64,000 nt of DNA, taken from an uncultured Thermoleophilia bacterium (GTDB lineage Bacteria; Actinomycetota; Thermoleophilia; UBA2241). Numbering within the stretch: the first letter of the stretch is position 1; every line of letters starts with the position of its first letter. Location: NCBI GenBank assembly GCA_963702475.1, contig CAVPCT010000002.1, forward strand, positions 160,001 through 224,000, written 5' to 3'. Shown here piece after piece: positions 47,369-53,867 of this stretch. The position numbers and the translations under genes were made by a program. Below the pieces are notes generated by a model, which was not told the origin of the DNA, searched no databases, and saw only the letters and a program-made list of their open reading frames with translations.

Positions 47369-47455
47369 GCCGGAGTGGCGGAACTGGTAGACGCGCTGGA
47401 CTCAAAACCCGGTGCCAGAGATGGCGTGTGGGTTCAAATCCCACCTTCGGCACCA
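47369..47455 (+). tRNA. tRNA-Leu(CAA)
   Basis: GCCGGAG/CTTCGGC acceptor stem, D-loop GG, anticodon loop CT-CAA-AA, long variable arm, GGTTCAAATCC and encoded CCA. TAGAAT -10 lies just upstream. Confidence 0.95.
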
Positions 47456-47579: not shown

Positions 47580-48263
47580 ATGACGGTGCGTCTCCTGGGG
47601 CTCGACTGCAGCCCCCGCGACAACAGCAACAGCGGCATCATGCTGGACACGGGCTTCAAGGGCCTCGACGAGAAGTACCCTGGCGAGGCCGAGTGGGAGA
47701 TCGTCCACCTCCGGGACATCGCCATCGAGCCGTGCAAGGCCTGCAACGTCTGCGGCAAGACCAAGGACGGGCGCTTCATCCCCTGCGTACGCGAGGACGA
47801 CGACGACGTGCAGGAGGTCCTCGACAAGATGGTCGCGGCCGACGGCATCCTCGTGGCGACGCCGGTGTACTTCGGCCTGCCGACCGACCTGTTCTCCAAG
47901 TTCATCATGCGCACGCGCCCGCTGCGCCACCAGGACTTCAAGCTGGCCAACCGGCCGGTGGGCGTGATGGCCGTCGCCGGGCGCCGCTCGGGCGGCGCCG
48001 AGACGGCCATCATCGCCACCTGGCTGCCCTTCGTGCGCAACGGCTGCCTTGTGGTGGGCAACGGCGACGGCACCTGCCAGTTCGGCGCCTACGGCTGGGC
48101 AGGCGCCCGCGGTCACGTGCTCAGCGACGAGTGGGGCCTCGAGCAGTCCTTTCAGACGGCCGAACGGGTGTTCACGCTGGCGCGTCTGCTGAAGGCGGGC
48201 GTCCAGGCCACCGGCTTCGTCAATCCCATGAAGTTCTCGTACAGCGCCGGGACGAGGTCCTGA
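47580..48263 (+). CDS. Iron-sulfur flavoprotein / flavodoxin-fold FMN reductase family protein
   Basis: SPR..SNS, CKACNVC...C cluster motif, ADGI..ATPVYFG, GG.E. GAGGAG SD; TGGTAGAAT promoter near 47495. Confidence 0.88.
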   Translation: MTVRLLGLDCSPRDNSNSGIMLDTGFKGLDEKYPGEAEWEIVHLRDIAIEPCKACNVCGKTKDGRFIPCVREDDDDVQEVLDKMVAADGILVATPVYFGLPTDLFSKFIMRTRPLRHQDFKLANRPVGVMAVAGRRSGGAETAIIATWLPFVRNGCLVVGNGDGTCQFGAYGWAGARGHVLSDEWGLEQSFQTAERVFTLARLLKAGVQATGFVNPMKFSYSAGTRS

Positions 48264-48300
48264 CACCCCCATCCCGCCGGCCCCGAGGAGCGACGCCACC

Positions 48301-48549
48301 ATGTCCGACGCCGACACGATCCTGGAGTTCATCCGCGAAGAGGCCGACCTCGACGAGGACGAGGTGACCGCCGACACGTCCCTGTTCCGCGACCAGCTGC
48401 TCGATTCCATGAACCTGACGGCGCTCATCGCGTTCCTCGAGGAGACGTTCGCCATCAAGATCAAGCCCATGGACATCGTGTTCGAGAACCTCGATACCGT
48501 GAACCACCAGCTCGCCTTCATCGCGCGCAAGAAGGCGGGCGATGCCTGA
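48301..48549 (+). CDS. Acyl carrier protein (DltC-like)
   Basis: Acidic 82-aa protein with LLDSM phosphopantetheine site and LEETF.I.I; GAGGAG SD. Confidence 0.9.
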   Translation: MSDADTILEFIREEADLDEDEVTADTSLFRDQLLDSMNLTALIAFLEETFAIKIKPMDIVFENLDTVNHQLAFIARKKAGDA

Positions 48550-48727
48550 GCCTCCGCCGCCCGGCGCCGAGCCGCACGGGGACGACCCTCCGCCGCGCAC
48601 GCGCTGGTTCTATTACGGCCTCGGTCTGAGCCTGCAGACCTTGCTGTGGTTCCTGCTCTTCCTCGCCATCATCGTGGCCGTCCTGGTGGGCGGTCAGTTG
48701 ACCGAGTTCCGTTACGTCGGGTTCTGA
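48542..48727 (+). CDS. DltX-like single-pass acyl-shuttle peptide
   Basis: 61 aa, one TM helix, C-terminus EFRYVGF matching the F-x-Y-x-x-F tail of DltX/AlgI; overlaps the ACP stop. Confidence 0.8.
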   Translation: MPEPPPPGAEPHGDDPPPRTRWFYYGLGLSLQTLLWFLLFLAIIVAVLVGGQLTEFRYVGF

Positions 48728-48749
48728 CGTCCCGGCACTCCGCCGCATC

Positions 48750-50321
48750 GTGCCCCCAGACCTCATGACCGATGCCGTCGCGCGCCTGCGTCGCTGGGCG
48801 CGCGAGCGCCCCGACGCCGTGCTGCTGCTCACGCGCGGCCACGAGTACACCTACGCCGACGTGTTCGCGCGGGCGTCGGCGGTGGCGGCCGCGCTGGGCG
48901 CCGCAGGCGCCGGCCGCGGCCGCCGGGTCGCGCTGCTGCTCGAGGAGTACGACGAGTTCTTCGTGGCCATGCTCGGCGTGTGGCTGGCAGGCTCCGTGGT
49001 CGTGCCCCTGAACGTCAGCTTGCCGGCCGCCGATCTCGCGTGGCTGGTCGAGAAGTCGCGGCCGGACGTGCTCGTGCTGGGCACCGACGCGGCCCGAGAG
49101 GGCGGCCCGGACGATGGCGCAGAGAGTGGCGCCGCGGCCGGCGCCGGGCCGGCGCGCGTGCACGTGCGCCGCGGCGAGGACGGCCGCGTCGAGGGGCTCG
49201 GGGCGGCCGGCGAAGCGCCGCCGCCCTCCGCGCAGACCACAGGCGACACTCTTGAGCCGGTGCGCGAGGAAGACATGGCCATGATCATGTACACCTCGGG
49301 CACCACCGGCCTGCCCAAGGGCGTCTGCCAGACGCTGCGGGCCGTCTCCTCCAACGCCGGACTGGTCGCGGAGACGCTCGCCCTCACCGGTGACGACCGC
49401 ATCTTCATCAACACGCCGCCGTACTTCACCAGCGGCATCTGTCACTTCCTCACGCTCATGGCGCGGGGCGGCGGGGTGGCCGGTCGGCTCGGCTTCTTCT
49501 TCGGCGCCGAGTTGTTGGGAGAGATGGAGCAGCTCGGCTGCACCGGCTTCGGCGGCGCGCCGGCGCACCTGGTGCGCGTCGTGGAGCCGCTCGAGGAGCC
49601 TCGTCCGCACCCGTTCCGCTTCTGGGTGAGCAGCGGCGACCACCTGCCGCTCTCCGTGATCCGCAGATTCCGCGCCGTGCTGCCCGGCATCGACCTGTTC
49701 AACATGTACGGGCTCACCGAGGTGAGCGGCCGGCTCTGCATCCTGCCGCCGCCCGAGCTCGACGCCCTCGAGGGCTCCGTCGGCCGGCCGATCGGCGACA
49801 TGAGGGTGGTGGCGCGGCGCGGCGACGGCAGCGAGGCCGCGCCGGGCGAGAACGGCGAGCTGTTCGTCACCGGCTCGCTGCTCATGCAGTGCTATCTGGA
49901 CGAGCCGAGGATCACCGCGAAGACGCTCACCGGCCATGGCCTGAAGACCGGCGACTTCGGCCGCGTCGACGAGAGCGGCGCCGTGTGGATCGCCGGGCGC
50001 AAGGACGACATCATCAAGCGCGGCGGCGAGAAGGTGAGCATCGTGCACGTGCAGCAGGCCCTGCAGGGCCTCGGCCGCTTCGCGGACGTCGCCGTGCTCG
50101 CCGCCCCCGACGACATCCTCGGCCACGTGCCCGTCGCTTTCGTCGTGCCGCACGATCGCGATAGCTTCAAGGCCTCCAAGCTGCTGCGCGAGCTGCGCGG
50201 GGTGCTGCCGTCCACCTCCATGCCCAGCCGGCTGATCGCCGTGGACGAGATCCCGCGCACGGGCTCGGGCAAAGCCATCCGCAAGCAGCTCGAGCGCCTG
50301 CTGGCGGAGGACGCCCGGTGA
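48750..50321 (+). CDS. Adenylate-forming (AMP-binding) acyl-carrier ligase
   Basis: YTSGTTGLPKG, YGLTE, KTGDFG, GRKDDIIK.GG, PRTGSGK. Alternative ATG at 48765. Confidence 0.92.
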   Translation: MPPDLMTDAVARLRRWARERPDAVLLLTRGHEYTYADVFARASAVAAALGAAGAGRGRRVALLLEEYDEFFVAMLGVWLAGSVVVPLNVSLPAADLAWLVEKSRPDVLVLGTDAAREGGPDDGAESGAAAGAGPARVHVRRGEDGRVEGLGAAGEAPPPSAQTTGDTLEPVREEDMAMIMYTSGTTGLPKGVCQTLRAVSSNAGLVAETLALTGDDRIFINTPPYFTSGICHFLTLMARGGGVAGRLGFFFGAELLGEMEQLGCTGFGGAPAHLVRVVEPLEEPRPHPFRFWVSSGDHLPLSVIRRFRAVLPGIDLFNMYGLTEVSGRLCILPPPELDALEGSVGRPIGDMRVVARRGDGSEAAPGENGELFVTGSLLMQCYLDEPRITAKTLTGHGLKTGDFGRVDESGAVWIAGRKDDIIKRGGEKVSIVHVQQALQGLGRFADVAVLAAPDDILGHVPVAFVVPHDRDSFKASKLLRELRGVLPSTSMPSRLIAVDEIPRTGSGKAIRKQLERLLAEDAR

Positions 50322-51415
50322 AGGGCTTCAGGGCCGGCTTAACCAATCGCAACCCCCTCGTCCTCGTCGTCGCCGGGCTGCTGCTGGTCCCGGCGCTGCT
50401 CGGCTTCGAGTACTACTTCACCAGCGGCGCCTGGAGTGAGGTGCCGCTCACGTACTGGCTGCGCAAGCCCACCGATTCGTTCACGTACGTCTCCTGGACG
50501 GTGGGTCGTACCAAGCTGCAGCGGCCGCCCGGCGCCGGCGTGTACCTCACCGGCGGCTCCTCGGCCCGCGAGGCTCTCGTCAGCGGCCCGGCGCTGGCCG
50601 CCGACGTGGAGGGCCTCGGCGGCCCCCGTGTCACAGTCATGGACCTGGGCTTCATCAACCAGAACTTCGCAGAGACCCTGGCCATAGCCGACAACGTGCC
50701 GGCCAGGGGCTCGTGGCTGCTGATCGGCGTGAACCTCGGCCGCTTCACGGCGTCGCCTGGGGTCAACGAGCGCCAGGTGGTCGGTCGCGACCTGCTCCTC
50801 AAGAGCGCGTTCCTGCAGCGGTACGTGGCCGACACCTACGGCCGTTACAGGTACTCCTTCACGATCCTGCCGGGGATCTTCTCGTACCTCACCGACAAGC
50901 TGAAGGGCGACGGGCGGCGCGCGCTGCGCGGGGACCTGGCTGCGCGCACCTACCGCCAGCACCACTACACTGCCGCGAAGAACCACAGCGTCAAGCAGAA
51001 GCGGCGCATGGTCGACGTGTGGCTCGACTCTCGGTACCCGGTGTTCGAGCGCAACCTGCCGTACAACCTCGACATGCTCGAACAGATCCTGGTGCGCTGC
51101 CGCCAGCGCGGCGTGCACGCCGCGCTCGTGGAGCTGCCGCTGAACCGGGACATCGTCGGCACGCGCTTCCAGAAGGCCATCGTGCAGTACAGGCTGCCGG
51201 TCATGGCCCTCGCCGACGAGTACGACGTCGCCTACGTGGACGTGAACGAGGCCGCGTCCGTGCCCAACGAGGACTTCCACGACCTGTCCCACCTCGTGGA
51301 GCCCGGCCGCGTGCGCTGGCAGCGGCAGCTCGCCAAGGCGCTCGTGCCGCTGCTCCGGGAGTCCGGGGCGGCGAGTCACGGCGTCGCGGCAGCAGCGGAG
51401 GTGGCCGTCCGGTGA
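50318..51415 (+). CDS. DltD/SGNH-like membrane-anchored acyltransferase A
   Basis: N-terminal TM helix, LTGGSSA (block I Ser), ELP.N, FHDLSHL (DxxH); GTGA overlaps at both ends. Confidence 0.72.
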   Translation: MKGFRAGLTNRNPLVLVVAGLLLVPALLGFEYYFTSGAWSEVPLTYWLRKPTDSFTYVSWTVGRTKLQRPPGAGVYLTGGSSAREALVSGPALAADVEGLGGPRVTVMDLGFINQNFAETLAIADNVPARGSWLLIGVNLGRFTASPGVNERQVVGRDLLLKSAFLQRYVADTYGRYRYSFTILPGIFSYLTDKLKGDGRRALRGDLAARTYRQHHYTAAKNHSVKQKRRMVDVWLDSRYPVFERNLPYNLDMLEQILVRCRQRGVHAALVELPLNRDIVGTRFQKAIVQYRLPVMALADEYDVAYVDVNEAASVPNEDFHDLSHLVEPGRVRWQRQLAKALVPLLRESGAASHGVAAAAEVAVR

Positions 51416-52659
51416 AGATCTACTTCACCATCTACCTGCTGCCGGTCGTCGTCCTCTCGCTGCTGGTGTTCTGGCTGGCGCTGCGGCGGCACGAGCGTGC
51501 CAGGCTCTGGTTCCTCATCGTGGTCTCGGTGGGCGCGCTGGCCGCGCTCAACCCTATCTTCGCAGCCATCGCCGTCGGCCTCGTAGCGCTCGCGCACCAG
51601 GTCGTGGAGCTCAAGCGGCGCGGTCGCTGGAGCGGGGGCCGCGTCGTCCTCGTCGCCGTGCTCGGCGCCGTCGTCACGCTGGCCATCGGCAAGTACGGCC
51701 AGTCTGGGGCCGAAGCCATCTGGGGCGGCGACGACTGGATCGTGAGCCGCCTCATCATGCCGCTCGGCATCAGCTACTTCGTGTTCCGCCTGCTGCAGTA
51801 CATGTTCGACTGCATGCGCGGGGTGATCCGGGAGAACTCGCTCCTGCGCCTGCTGGCGTTCGTCATGTTCATCCCCACGTTCCCGGCCGGCCCCCTGGAG
51901 ACCTATCAGGGGTTCTACGAGAAGCGCAGCTACAGCTTCGACCGCCAGCTCTTCTACTTCGGCCTGCGCCGCATCGCCCTCGGCTACTTCAAGAAGGTCT
52001 TCGTGGTGGACTTCCTGTTCACCATCTTCTTCAAGGGTGTCTTCGACGCGGTCAAGGCGGCACACCCGGACTGGGGCGGCATGGACGACCTGGTGCCGCT
52101 CGCCTACGTCATCCTGGTGTTCGTACGCGCCTACTTCGATCTCTCCGCCTACACCGACCTGGCTATCGGGTTCTCGGCGCTGTTCGGCTTCCGCATCATG
52201 GAGAACTTCCACCTGCCCTTCCTGCAGAAGAACCTCAGCGACTTCTGGCGGAGCTGGCACATCTCGCTCTCCACCTGGTGCCGCAACAACGTGTACTTCC
52301 CCGTGTTCGGGCTCACGCGCAAGGTGTGGCTGGGTCTGTACGCCAGCATGCTGACCATGGGTCTGTGGCACTGGGTGGACCTGCAGTGGTTCACCTGGGG
52401 CCTCTACCACGGCACCGGGCTCGTGGTGTTCTCGCGCTGGGAGCGCTGGAAGAAGGCCCGCAGAAAGGCGCGCAAGAAGGCGGGCCTGCCGCCGGCCGCC
52501 GGGTACGAGAGGTTCCTGGGCTGGATCGGCTACCCGGCCACGTTCCTGTACGTGGCGCTGGGCTACTCCTTCGTGGCGTCCCAGTCGTACCCCAAGGCCC
52601 TGGCGCTCTTCTGGCACGCGCTCATCGGCCCCATACTGTGGCTGGTGGGGTTGTTCTGA
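51412..52659 (+). CDS. MBOAT family O-acyltransferase (DltB/AlgI-like)
   Basis: KY, PLGISYF.F...Y..D, F.P...AGP, G.FKK, YFD.SAY.DLAIG, ENF..P, DFWRSWHISLSTW, GLWH catalytic His, WGLYHG. Confidence 0.94.
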   Translation: MKIYFTIYLLPVVVLSLLVFWLALRRHERARLWFLIVVSVGALAALNPIFAAIAVGLVALAHQVVELKRRGRWSGGRVVLVAVLGAVVTLAIGKYGQSGAEAIWGGDDWIVSRLIMPLGISYFVFRLLQYMFDCMRGVIRENSLLRLLAFVMFIPTFPAGPLETYQGFYEKRSYSFDRQLFYFGLRRIALGYFKKVFVVDFLFTIFFKGVFDAVKAAHPDWGGMDDLVPLAYVILVFVRAYFDLSAYTDLAIGFSALFGFRIMENFHLPFLQKNLSDFWRSWHISLSTWCRNNVYFPVFGLTRKVWLGLYASMLTMGLWHWVDLQWFTWGLYHGTGLVVFSRWERWKKARRKARKKAGLPPAAGYERFLGWIGYPATFLYVALGYSFVASQSYPKALALFWHALIGPILWLVGLF

Positions 52660-52679
52660 GCTCGGTAGGTGCCGTGGAT

Positions 52680-53867
52680 GTGAAGACTGCCTCAGGTGAG
52701 GAACGCGGGCCGGCGCGCTCGCGTCGCGACTCCTTTGCCGGCGGGTTCCGCCAGCGGAACCCGCTCGTGCTCGTCGTCGCGGTCGCGCTCGCCGGCCTGC
52801 TCGTCCTGGTGGCGCAGCAGGCGTTCGTGCTGGGCGCCTTCACGGCCGTCTCCGAGGGTCGTTTGTTGCGCATCGAGAACGACGACTACTTCCACCTCGC
52901 CTACAAGCTGGCCGAGCTGAAGCAGGACCCGCCGCAGGGGCCGACCCTGTACCTGTTCGGCGGGTCCGGCGCCATGGAGAGTATCGTGAGCCAGCGCTCG
53001 CTGGCGAAGCAGCTCGAGCGCGACGGGGCCGGCGATGTCAACGTCATCAGCCTGGCGGCGCACCGCGAGAGCCTCGCCGCCACGCTGGCGCTGATCGACA
53101 ACCTGCCCGCCGGCCAAGTCGCCCTCGCCGTCGGGCTTACGCCCATGCGGTTCACCATGGCGCCGGCGGAGGACGCCGGGCTGCTGGAGGGCAAGCCGAT
53201 CCTGGTCCACAGCCCGCGCCTCCAGGCCCTGGGTCCGGAGCTCTACGGCAGGAGCTCCCGGGTCTGGGGCCTGCTGCCCGGCATGTTCGACTACGCCGGG
53301 GCGTACATCCGCGAGCGCGCCGACGCGCCCTTCTGGGGCGTGCGCATCCCGTACGCGCACCACTACTGGCAGAAGGGCGAGACCGGCGCGCTCCCGCTCG
53401 CCAAGCGCCGCAACGTGCTCGCCGTGCTGGCGCGCGACCAGCGACTCTACGAGCAGAACGCCGACTACAACTTCCGGCTGCTCCGCGAGATCCTGCGGCT
53501 GGCGGAGGAGCGCGGCTTCGCCGTGGTGCTCTGGGATCAGCCGCTGAACGGCTCGGCCGCCGGCCCGGACTGGGCGGGCGTGGTGCCTGCCTATCGGGAG
53601 CGCGCGCAGGCGCTGGCCGACGAGGCGGGGGTGCCGTACATCCACCCCGGCGACATCGCCGGTCTGCAGGATGCCGACTTCGCCGACCTCTTCCACCTGC
53701 TCGACCACGGCCGCCTGAAGTGGCAGCCCTCGTTCTCGCAGCAGGTGACCGAGGCCATCCGGTTGCTCGGCGGCAGCGCCGTGGCCGTGCCGCAGGGTAT
53801 GGATCTGCCGGCACCGGCACCGGCGCCGTCACCCTCGCTCAGCCCGATCCTGCAGACCGGTCCCTGA
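52680..53867 (+). CDS. DltD/SGNH-like membrane-anchored acyltransferase B
   Basis: Paralog of 50318..51415 (RNPLVLVVA, LFGGSGA, DQPLN, FADLFHL...GR..WQ); Pro-rich tail. Start inferred. Confidence 0.72.
   Translation: MKTASGEERGPARSRRDSFAGGFRQRNPLVLVVAVALAGLLVLVAQQAFVLGAFTAVSEGRLLRIENDDYFHLAYKLAELKQDPPQGPTLYLFGGSGAMESIVSQRSLAKQLERDGAGDVNVISLAAHRESLAATLALIDNLPAGQVALAVGLTPMRFTMAPAEDAGLLEGKPILVHSPRLQALGPELYGRSSRVWGLLPGMFDYAGAYIRERADAPFWGVRIPYAHHYWQKGETGALPLAKRRNVLAVLARDQRLYEQNADYNFRLLREILRLAEERGFAVVLWDQPLNGSAAGPDWAGVVPAYRERAQALADEAGVPYIHPGDIAGLQDADFADLFHLLDHGRLKWQPSFSQQVTEAIRLLGGSAVAVPQGMDLPAPAPAPSPSLSPILQTGP

Follow-up and report, generated by a model that had tools for sequence, protein, structure and literature searches.

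The subject of this analysis is a short open reading frame (ORF) in a 64,000-nucleotide stretch of DNA, referred to below as the window, from an uncultured Thermoleophilia bacterium (assembly GCA_963702475.1, contig CAVPCT010000002.1, positions 160,001 to 224,000 of the forward strand). The ORF lies in an operon at 47580-53867 of the window, all genes of which are on the + strand and are closely packed or overlapping. Its product is a microprotein that ends, as DltX does, in an F-x-Y-x-x-F motif, and the other genes of the operon encode its candidate partners in an acyl-transfer pathway. The features of the locus are as follows.

48542..48727, + strand: acyl-shuttle candidate microprotein (61 aa), ATG start, predicted single-pass membrane protein, proposed acyl-carrying Tyr58
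47369..47455, + strand: tRNA-Leu(CAA), called by ARAGORN; upstream boundary of the operon
47580..48263, + strand: FMN_red-type flavoprotein (PF03358, E=1.1e-20); first gene of the cluster
48301..48549, + strand: 82-aa acyl carrier protein (ACP; PP-binding, E=4.5e-9), with a DltC-like role
48750..50321 (start may be 48765), + strand: adenosine monophosphate (AMP)-forming ligase (AMP-binding, E=5.2e-69)
50318..51415, + strand: membrane-anchored SGNH protein 1, DltD-like, with Ser81, Asp322 and His325; assigned by fold match
51412..52659, + strand: DltB-type MBOAT, 415 aa (PF03062, E=1.2e-17), with His320 in MGLWH
52674..53867 (start 52674 or 52680), + strand: membrane-anchored SGNH protein 2, a paralogue of SGNH protein 1

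Downstream of the operon lies a convergent gene for an M42 peptidase.

The microprotein and its predicted topology

The microprotein gene (48542-48727, + strand) comprises 61 codons from the ATG, translated as MPEPPPPGAEPHGDDPPPRTRWFYYGLGLSLQTLLWFLLFLAIIVAVLVGGQLTEFRYVGF, and then a stop. The first 8 nt of the gene are also the last 8 of the upstream carrier-protein gene, stop codon included (ATGCCTGA), and the sequence GAAGG is found about 9 nt 5' of the ATG. The product has a single hydrophobic stretch of about 30 uncharged residues, making one predicted membrane helix, and ends in EFRYVGF directly before the stop, the last six residues fitting F-x-Y-x-x-F. From end to end, the layout is a variable, acidic and proline-rich N-terminus, the sequence R-x-R-W, some 30 hydrophobic residues, and the tail LTEFRYVGF-COOH. 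The best 19-mer has a mean Kyte-Doolittle value of 2.5 across 173 family members. The initial annotation, made from the sequence alone, had described a 61-residue protein with one membrane helix and an EFRYVGF ending, and an MBOAT whose own C-terminus is free of the motif. The coordinates, length, ending and single hydrophobic stretch of the former were all confirmed, as was the ending of the latter (51412-52659), which reads ...ILWLVGLF and has no F-x-Y-x-x-F.

An ORF of this size could be a chance product of a high-GC genome, or a spacer for translational coupling between the ACP and ligase genes. High-GC genomes are rich in spurious ORFs, and several overlap the region on both strands. However, six-frame translation of the window gives 431 ORFs of 40 aa or more, and the microprotein is the only one that ends in F.Y..F; the chance expectation for such an ending, calculated from residue frequencies in ORF tails, is about 0.0009. 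The conservation results described in the next section also bear on this explanation.

The helix is flanked by R-x-R-W on its N-terminal side and by seven to ten residues on its C-terminal side. Lys and Arg together average 2.16 per 15 residues before the helix vs 1.48 after it (173 members), and in low-GC members the corresponding numbers are 3-4 and 1. The long acidic, proline-rich N-terminal extensions contain no signal peptide. An N-in/C-out orientation is favoured because of this charge bias, because the extensions are without a signal peptide, and because the SGNH partners have N-terminal anchors. The predicted extracytoplasmic location of the microprotein C-terminus has modest support.

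Conservation of the tail and of the gene order

A word-seeded search returned 322 homologues of the microprotein, ranging from 33 to 107 aa, none of which carries a precomputed Pfam domain. Among the 120 of these that were listed, the tail is EFRYVGF in 119 and EVRYVGF in one, while the N-terminal 20-60 residues vary freely. Common to the 120 is the core W-[FL]-x-Y-G-L-G-L-S-L-Q-T-x-L-W-F-L-L-F-L, followed by the tail LTE[FV]RYVGF. Three longer proteins (114-122 aa), returned by a search for extended forms, carry no domain. The family was also searched exhaustively with HMMER against 1.84 billion representatives, using a profile of 46 columns built from 69 sequences. This gave 60 matches at E<=1e-3, and in 56 of them the match reached the tail. 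Phe at position -5 and Tyr at position -3 are present in 56/56, and the C-terminal residue itself is either Phe (53) or Tyr (3). Arg is found at -4 in 55/56, position -2 is Val in 54 and Met in 2, and position -1 is unconstrained (Gly in 50, Arg in 4, Ser in 1 and Asn in 1). The remaining four matches, including the long ones P0160, P0166 and P0171, were set aside, as they look like frameshifted gene calls across the ACP, microprotein and ligase genes.

The peptide patterns TEFRYVGF and LWFLLFL[AG][IL] led to 75 genome loci. At the DNA level, the last 46 codons of the microprotein gene were compared among 74 distinct versions. In the last nine codons, pairwise codon differences amount to 6056 synonymous and 0 non-synonymous, and all six Arg codons are used for the tail Arg. 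The microprotein gene is real, and it is under strong protein-level selection centred on the tail. The idea of a chance ORF or a coupling spacer is effectively refuted by the hidden Markov model (HMM) search, the codon comparison and the conservation of the tail; it has conservation at the protein level and purely synonymous tail changes against it, as well as the presence of low-GC members in the family, and we give it almost no credence. In one locus (L058, 7929-8195) the microprotein reads on past FRYVGF with no stop codon, and in several other loci from metagenome-assembled genomes (MAGs; L010, L012 and L017 among them) the match to a ligase, SGNH protein or MBOAT is split. Indel errors in the long-read MAG assemblies are a more probable cause than true pseudogenes.

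The order flavoprotein, ACP, microprotein, AMP-ligase, SGNH, DltB-type MBOAT, SGNH is conserved among the 75 loci, nearly all of which are from Thermoleophilia MAGs. An ACP gene is present within 400 nt upstream of the microprotein in 71/73 testable loci, a ligase gene within 400 nt downstream in 69/72, and an MBOAT gene within 8 kb downstream in 51/51. Exceptions to the order are L064 and L067, in which the microprotein gene comes first in the cluster, and the additional copy of the gene in L048. A more independent case of the ACP-microprotein-ligase order is provided by L083, a low-GC metagenome contig that carries a PP-binding ACP, an overlapping 49-aa ORF (MKKMSK...SEFRYVAY) and then an AMP-binding gene; the scan of metagenomes for low-GC relatives gave one short contig.

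Co-occurrence was followed in 301 genomes drawn evenly from the class. An orthologue of the window MBOAT (57-77% identity) is present in 47 of them, counting the source genome, all in one family, and the microprotein is present in 47/47, a figure that is to be taken as co-occurrence and not as a statistical test since related genomes are not independent. The microprotein occurs alone in two further, incomplete genomes of the family (80% and 82% complete), and neither it nor the MBOAT orthologue is found in seven other genomes of the same family. In the 245 genomes of other families there was no convincing match to either protein; what was found there is a 35%-identical MBOAT in G193 and a marginal microprotein match in G242 (E=0.006) that stops short of the tail. 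The initial annotation had advised looking for small ORFs with F-x-Y-x-x-F ends beside homologous MBOATs, and had let its reading depend on whether the ORF and its terminal motif are retained in syntenic clusters. Such ORFs are indeed syntenic in the related loci, with both the ORF and the motif conserved. The microprotein is obligately associated with ACP, ligase, tail-less DltB-type MBOAT and SGNH genes.

The microprotein is present in two copies in G038, G276, G074, G122 and L048, and G038 and G276 also have two MBOAT copies; some genomes have the entire module in duplicate. Clusters contain between one and about five SGNH/DltD-like paralogues (L009, L013-L015, L049 and others), the window having two, and this range points to several acceptors, or to specialised transferases, supplied by a single shuttle. 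Loci labelled Krumholzibacteriia (L020) and Gemmatimonadaceae (L042) were considered as evidence of a wider spread and rejected: they are short contigs (8.0 and 3.0 kb) with near-typical Thermoleophilia versions of the genes, and their taxon labels are probably binning errors.

Candidate partner proteins of the microprotein

By every available measure, whether of sequence or of predicted structure, the window MBOAT appears DltB-like. It matches the DltB model TIGR04091 at E=1e-44, with 153 bits (below the cut-off of 375), and DltB is its sole sequence match in the PDB (E about 1e-34). In a comparison with one DltB the identity is 26% and the lengths are 415 vs 408 aa. The predicted model, with a predicted local distance difference test (pLDDT) value of 78.8, has TM-scores of 0.68-0.71 to the DltB structures 8jem and 6bug over about 410 columns, with PORCN and HHAT ranking lower. 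The histidine of MGLWH is present. An F.Y..[FY] end is found in 0/54 orthologous MBOATs (412-450 aa), and something else must therefore accept the acyl group between the MBOAT and the SGNH proteins.

The source genome has three other, longer MBOATs, and these have C-termini of their own that read FLYFQF, FLYFKF and FLYFQF. In the paralogue with the fused tail AEFLYFKF, as in the microprotein (TEFRYVGF), the motif is preceded by Glu. Because a tail-less MBOAT and three MBOATs with fused motifs are found in the same genome, the split and the fused arrangements coexist in one organism. The split arrangement had been proposed for the window in the initial annotation, and the proposal is upheld by the DltB-type character of the MBOAT, by the tail-less orthologues, and by the fused-motif MBOATs of the same genome. 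Two AlgI/PatA-type MBOAT genes with fused FLYF[QK]F tails lie in tandem on contig C1 (L084, 5055-6713 and 7946-9385, + strand); the second is followed directly by a DUF459/SGNH gene (PF04311, E=1.6e-60), and no carrier-protein gene is seen beside them. L084 is a separate MBOAT-SGNH acylation locus. In the third, AlgI-like MBOAT, on contig C4 (L085, 5235-6767 and 5372-5605, both - strand), the C-terminal part ending PFLYFQF is frame-shifted, which reflects either a frameshift or an assembly error.

The SGNH genes flanking the MBOAT gene are predicted, from alignments and a structural model, to encode proteins of the SGNH fold with a Ser ... Asp-x-x-His triad, and to be DltD-like. Gly79-Gly80-Ser81, Asp322 and His325 are invariant in an alignment of 45 sequences that includes both paralogues, and the two proteins of the window, about 30% identical, have the same invariant Ser, Asp and His columns. 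The model of SGNH protein 1 (pLDDT 91.2) has as its top Foldseek matches the DltD structures 6o93, 6pfx and 3bma, from Enterococcus and Streptococcus. By VIA-align it scores Z 15.6 to TesA-type SGNH enzymes and Z 13.7 to DltD, the latter over 264 residues, the longest alignment. The Pfam GDSL match of the SGNH protein, taken alone, is below the cut-off.

The SGNH genes bear on the possibility that the microprotein is itself the end substrate, that is, a membrane peptide permanently acylated on its tail and the lipo- or acyl-peptide product of the cluster. A short peptide gene adjoining a ligase and a carrier-protein gene, and an invariant tail that could be modified, are what such a pathway would present. 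However, one to five SGNH transferase genes with intact triads accompany the microprotein in every case, and such a pathway would give them nothing to do; nor was any protease, exporter or leader-like feature found. The precedent of MBOAT/SGNH systems, as given in passages of PMC12148441, is also one in which the acyl group resides on the Tyr transiently. We regard an end-product role as improbable.

The ligase differs from DltA. Its best NCBIfam and PDB matches are to fatty-acyl, aryl and nonribosomal peptide synthetase adenylating enzymes; DltA families are absent from the 25 of its 108 NCBIfam matches that were listed, and DltA is absent from its 27 PDB matches at E<=1e-30. It is 21% identical to one DltA, and in that alignment the Asp of the DltA motif SFDLSV, which we take to contact the amino group of the substrate, corresponds to Thr. 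With a ligase unlike DltA, D-alanine is probably not the acyl group. The window carrier protein in turn scores 28 bits against the DltC model NF003464, below the cut-off of 68.

Comparison with DltX and a possible acyl relay

The role proposed for the microprotein is modelled on DltX. In the relevant passages of a 2025 paper on MBOAT-SGNH acylation, DltX is described as carrying D-alanine on the invariant Tyr of its C-terminal FXYXXF motif, and PatA-type MBOATs as bearing the motif on extra helices of their own, where the Tyr carries the acyl group (PMC12148441). The acyl-tyrosine background given in the initial annotation is thus stated there. The paper also describes MBOAT pathways other than Dlt as lacking a DltX-like microprotein (PMC12148441). 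Portions of another paper report that the tail of DltX docks in the DltD active site, and that it binds DltD and DltE as a peptide ligand (PMC13653941). The DltX literature found by our searches concerns Bacillota, and FRYVGF was not found in the literature searched.

The reference DltX, from a Lactobacillus crispatus plasmid, has 43 aa: a basic N-terminus is followed by one helix, and the last residues are FIYNEF. Its operon has the order dltC-dltX-dltA-dltB. Because this protein and this operon match the microprotein and its locus, the architecture, motif positions and gene order can be said to be the same as those of DltX. Like DltX (Bacillota, PF12459), the microprotein is small, with one membrane helix, a basic stretch before the helix, a short linker and a terminal F-x-Y-x-x-F, and its gene lies beside genes for a carrier protein, an adenylating ligase, a tail-less DltB-type MBOAT and DltD-like SGNH proteins. 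The tail agrees with F-x-Y-x-x-F at precisely those three positions that define the motif. Unlike DltX, whose tail is FIYNEF, the microprotein has FRYVGF within a conserved LTEFRYVGF. Its helix is longer and is preceded by a variable acidic and proline-rich extension of 20-60 residues, its host is a Thermoleophilia family, and its ligase is not DltA-like. With the PatA/AlgI-type MBOATs it shares the motif positions and, presumably, the hand-over of an acyl-tyrosine from the MBOAT His to the SGNH Ser (PMC12148441). In that type, however, the motif is on extra helices of the MBOAT, the donor is acyl-coenzyme A and there is no carrier protein, whereas in the window the motif belongs to a protein with its own gene, and acyl-ACP is the presumed donor. 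A synthetic acyl peptide with the sequence FIYANF has served as donor in assays of PatB. With the Dlt pathway the locus shares a carrier-protein-dependent MBOAT/SGNH logic, the MBOAT matching DltB best and the SGNH protein having DltD as its top Foldseek match. It departs from that pathway in that the MBOAT and carrier matches are under the curated cut-offs, and in the specificity residue of the ligase.

A rival reading takes the microprotein for a strongly diverged DltX orthologue and the locus for an ordinary D-alanylation (Dlt) system. The locus does supply every other Dlt role (carrier, ligase, DltB-type MBOAT and DltD-like SGNH protein), and the genes are ordered as in the dltC-dltX-dltA-dltB operon. 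However, no DltA is among the listed NCBIfam matches of the ligase or its PDB matches at E<=1e-30, its identity to a DltA is low, and it has Thr in place of the SFDLSV Asp; two to five SGNH paralogues and a flavoprotein gene are present at such loci that are not in the reference plasmid stretch; and PF12459 does not match the microprotein. An orthologue of this kind seems unlikely to us. Because homology in sequence is undetectable, we classify the microprotein as working like DltX and not as a member of PF12459. Among ESM features, a cluster in which 45% of members carry PF12459 appears at rank 7 (score 0.88, 187/256 features), which is to be used as a lead only.

Several results weigh against a DltX-like role. 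PF12459 gave no match to the microprotein at E<=1, none anywhere in the source genome at E<=10 (control genomes were matched), and none to 14 distant members of the microprotein family at E<=10. Alignment of the 69-sequence family profile with the L. crispatus DltX by hhalign gave a probability of 0.6%, although this is a weak test because it uses a single DltX sequence; both a homologue search with that DltX and a tblastn search against a plasmid collection, made for a DltX profile, returned only the sequence itself. A sequence search of the PDB with the family profile returned chance-level matches only. In high-GC members, the charge distribution supports the topology weakly. The tail invariance among the 75 loci is partly by construction, because TEFRYVGF was one of the search patterns; in the HMM searches, which are independent of that pattern, the tail varies only where the FxYxxF consensus leaves positions free. 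Finally, the tail has an invariant Arg and Val that are not within the FXYXXF consensus.

The last point would also suit a non-catalytic subunit, in which the helix would scaffold or stabilise an MBOAT-SGNH complex and the tail would act as a docking peptide, with no acyl-tyrosine being formed. The conserved stretch is one of nine residues (LTEFRYVGF), longer than the hexapeptide, and the binding of the DltX tail to DltD and DltE as a peptide ligand, as reported in portions of PMC13653941, sets a precedent for docking. However, F, Y and the terminal F/Y are the positions kept even in the most distant members, and none of the 54 MBOATs has a motif of its own. A purely structural role is rather unlikely, though of the alternatives it is the one we would put first.

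We consider it likely, by analogy with DltX, that the microprotein is a genuine membrane protein and does the job of DltX, as the detached acyl-shuttle subunit of an envelope-acylation machine of the MBOAT/SGNH type that depends on a carrier protein, and that its Tyr58 is most likely the residue that carries the acyl group, as the Tyr of DltX does. In such a machine the AMP-ligase would activate a carboxylic acid, probably not D-alanine, and load it onto the phosphopantetheine arm of the ACP. The DltB-type MBOAT would take the acyl group from the ACP at the cytoplasmic face, and by analogy with DltB/DltX its His320 may then pass the group to the hydroxyl of Tyr58 in an extracytoplasmic FRYVGF, the microprotein helix being packed against the MBOAT. 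The acyl-tyrosine tail would swing into the Ser81/Asp322/His325 site of one of the membrane-anchored SGNH proteins, which would transfer the acyl group to a cell-envelope polymer.

What is new here is that the DltX principle, as we read it, is put to use by a microprotein unrelated to DltX in sequence, and in an actinobacterial operon that differs in its activating enzyme and also encodes several SGNH paralogues and a flavoprotein. On such a reading, the split arrangement would extend beyond Bacillota, to an operon in which activation is by an enzyme other than a D-alanine ligase. More tentatively, the microproteins may form a second family of acyl-tyrosine shuttles, unrelated to DltX in sequence, under a general rule by which ACP-fed (DltB-type) MBOATs have a detached shuttle and acyl-coenzyme A-fed MBOATs a fused one. 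One shuttle could then serve two to five SGNH paralogues and deliver one non-amino-acyl group to several envelope acceptors. If so, the nine tail residues, Arg and Val included, would be frozen because the tail must fit the MBOAT as well as several SGNH active sites. The loci also provide a comparison set for asking which tail residues are important for acyl transfer, whether one shuttle serves several SGNH transferases, and how the envelope is modified in Thermoleophilia. Because the microprotein is invisible to Pfam and NCBIfam, neither of which gives a match, genome annotation misses an essential-looking subunit, as the initial annotation had foreseen. A practical rule would be that, where an MBOAT is without a C-terminal FxYxxF, a micro-ORF ending in FxYxxF should be sought.

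The flavoprotein at the head of the operon may make or modify the acyl substrate. Its ATG at 47580 is preceded by AGAGGAG, and it contains a cysteine cluster, CxxCxxC...C (CKACNVC...C); it presumably resembles the iron-sulfur flavoproteins. Its gene adjoins the ACP gene in nearly all related loci and is kept inside the cluster in the rearranged L064 and L067. Its conservation, at about 80-88% identity, is higher than that of any other gene in the cluster.

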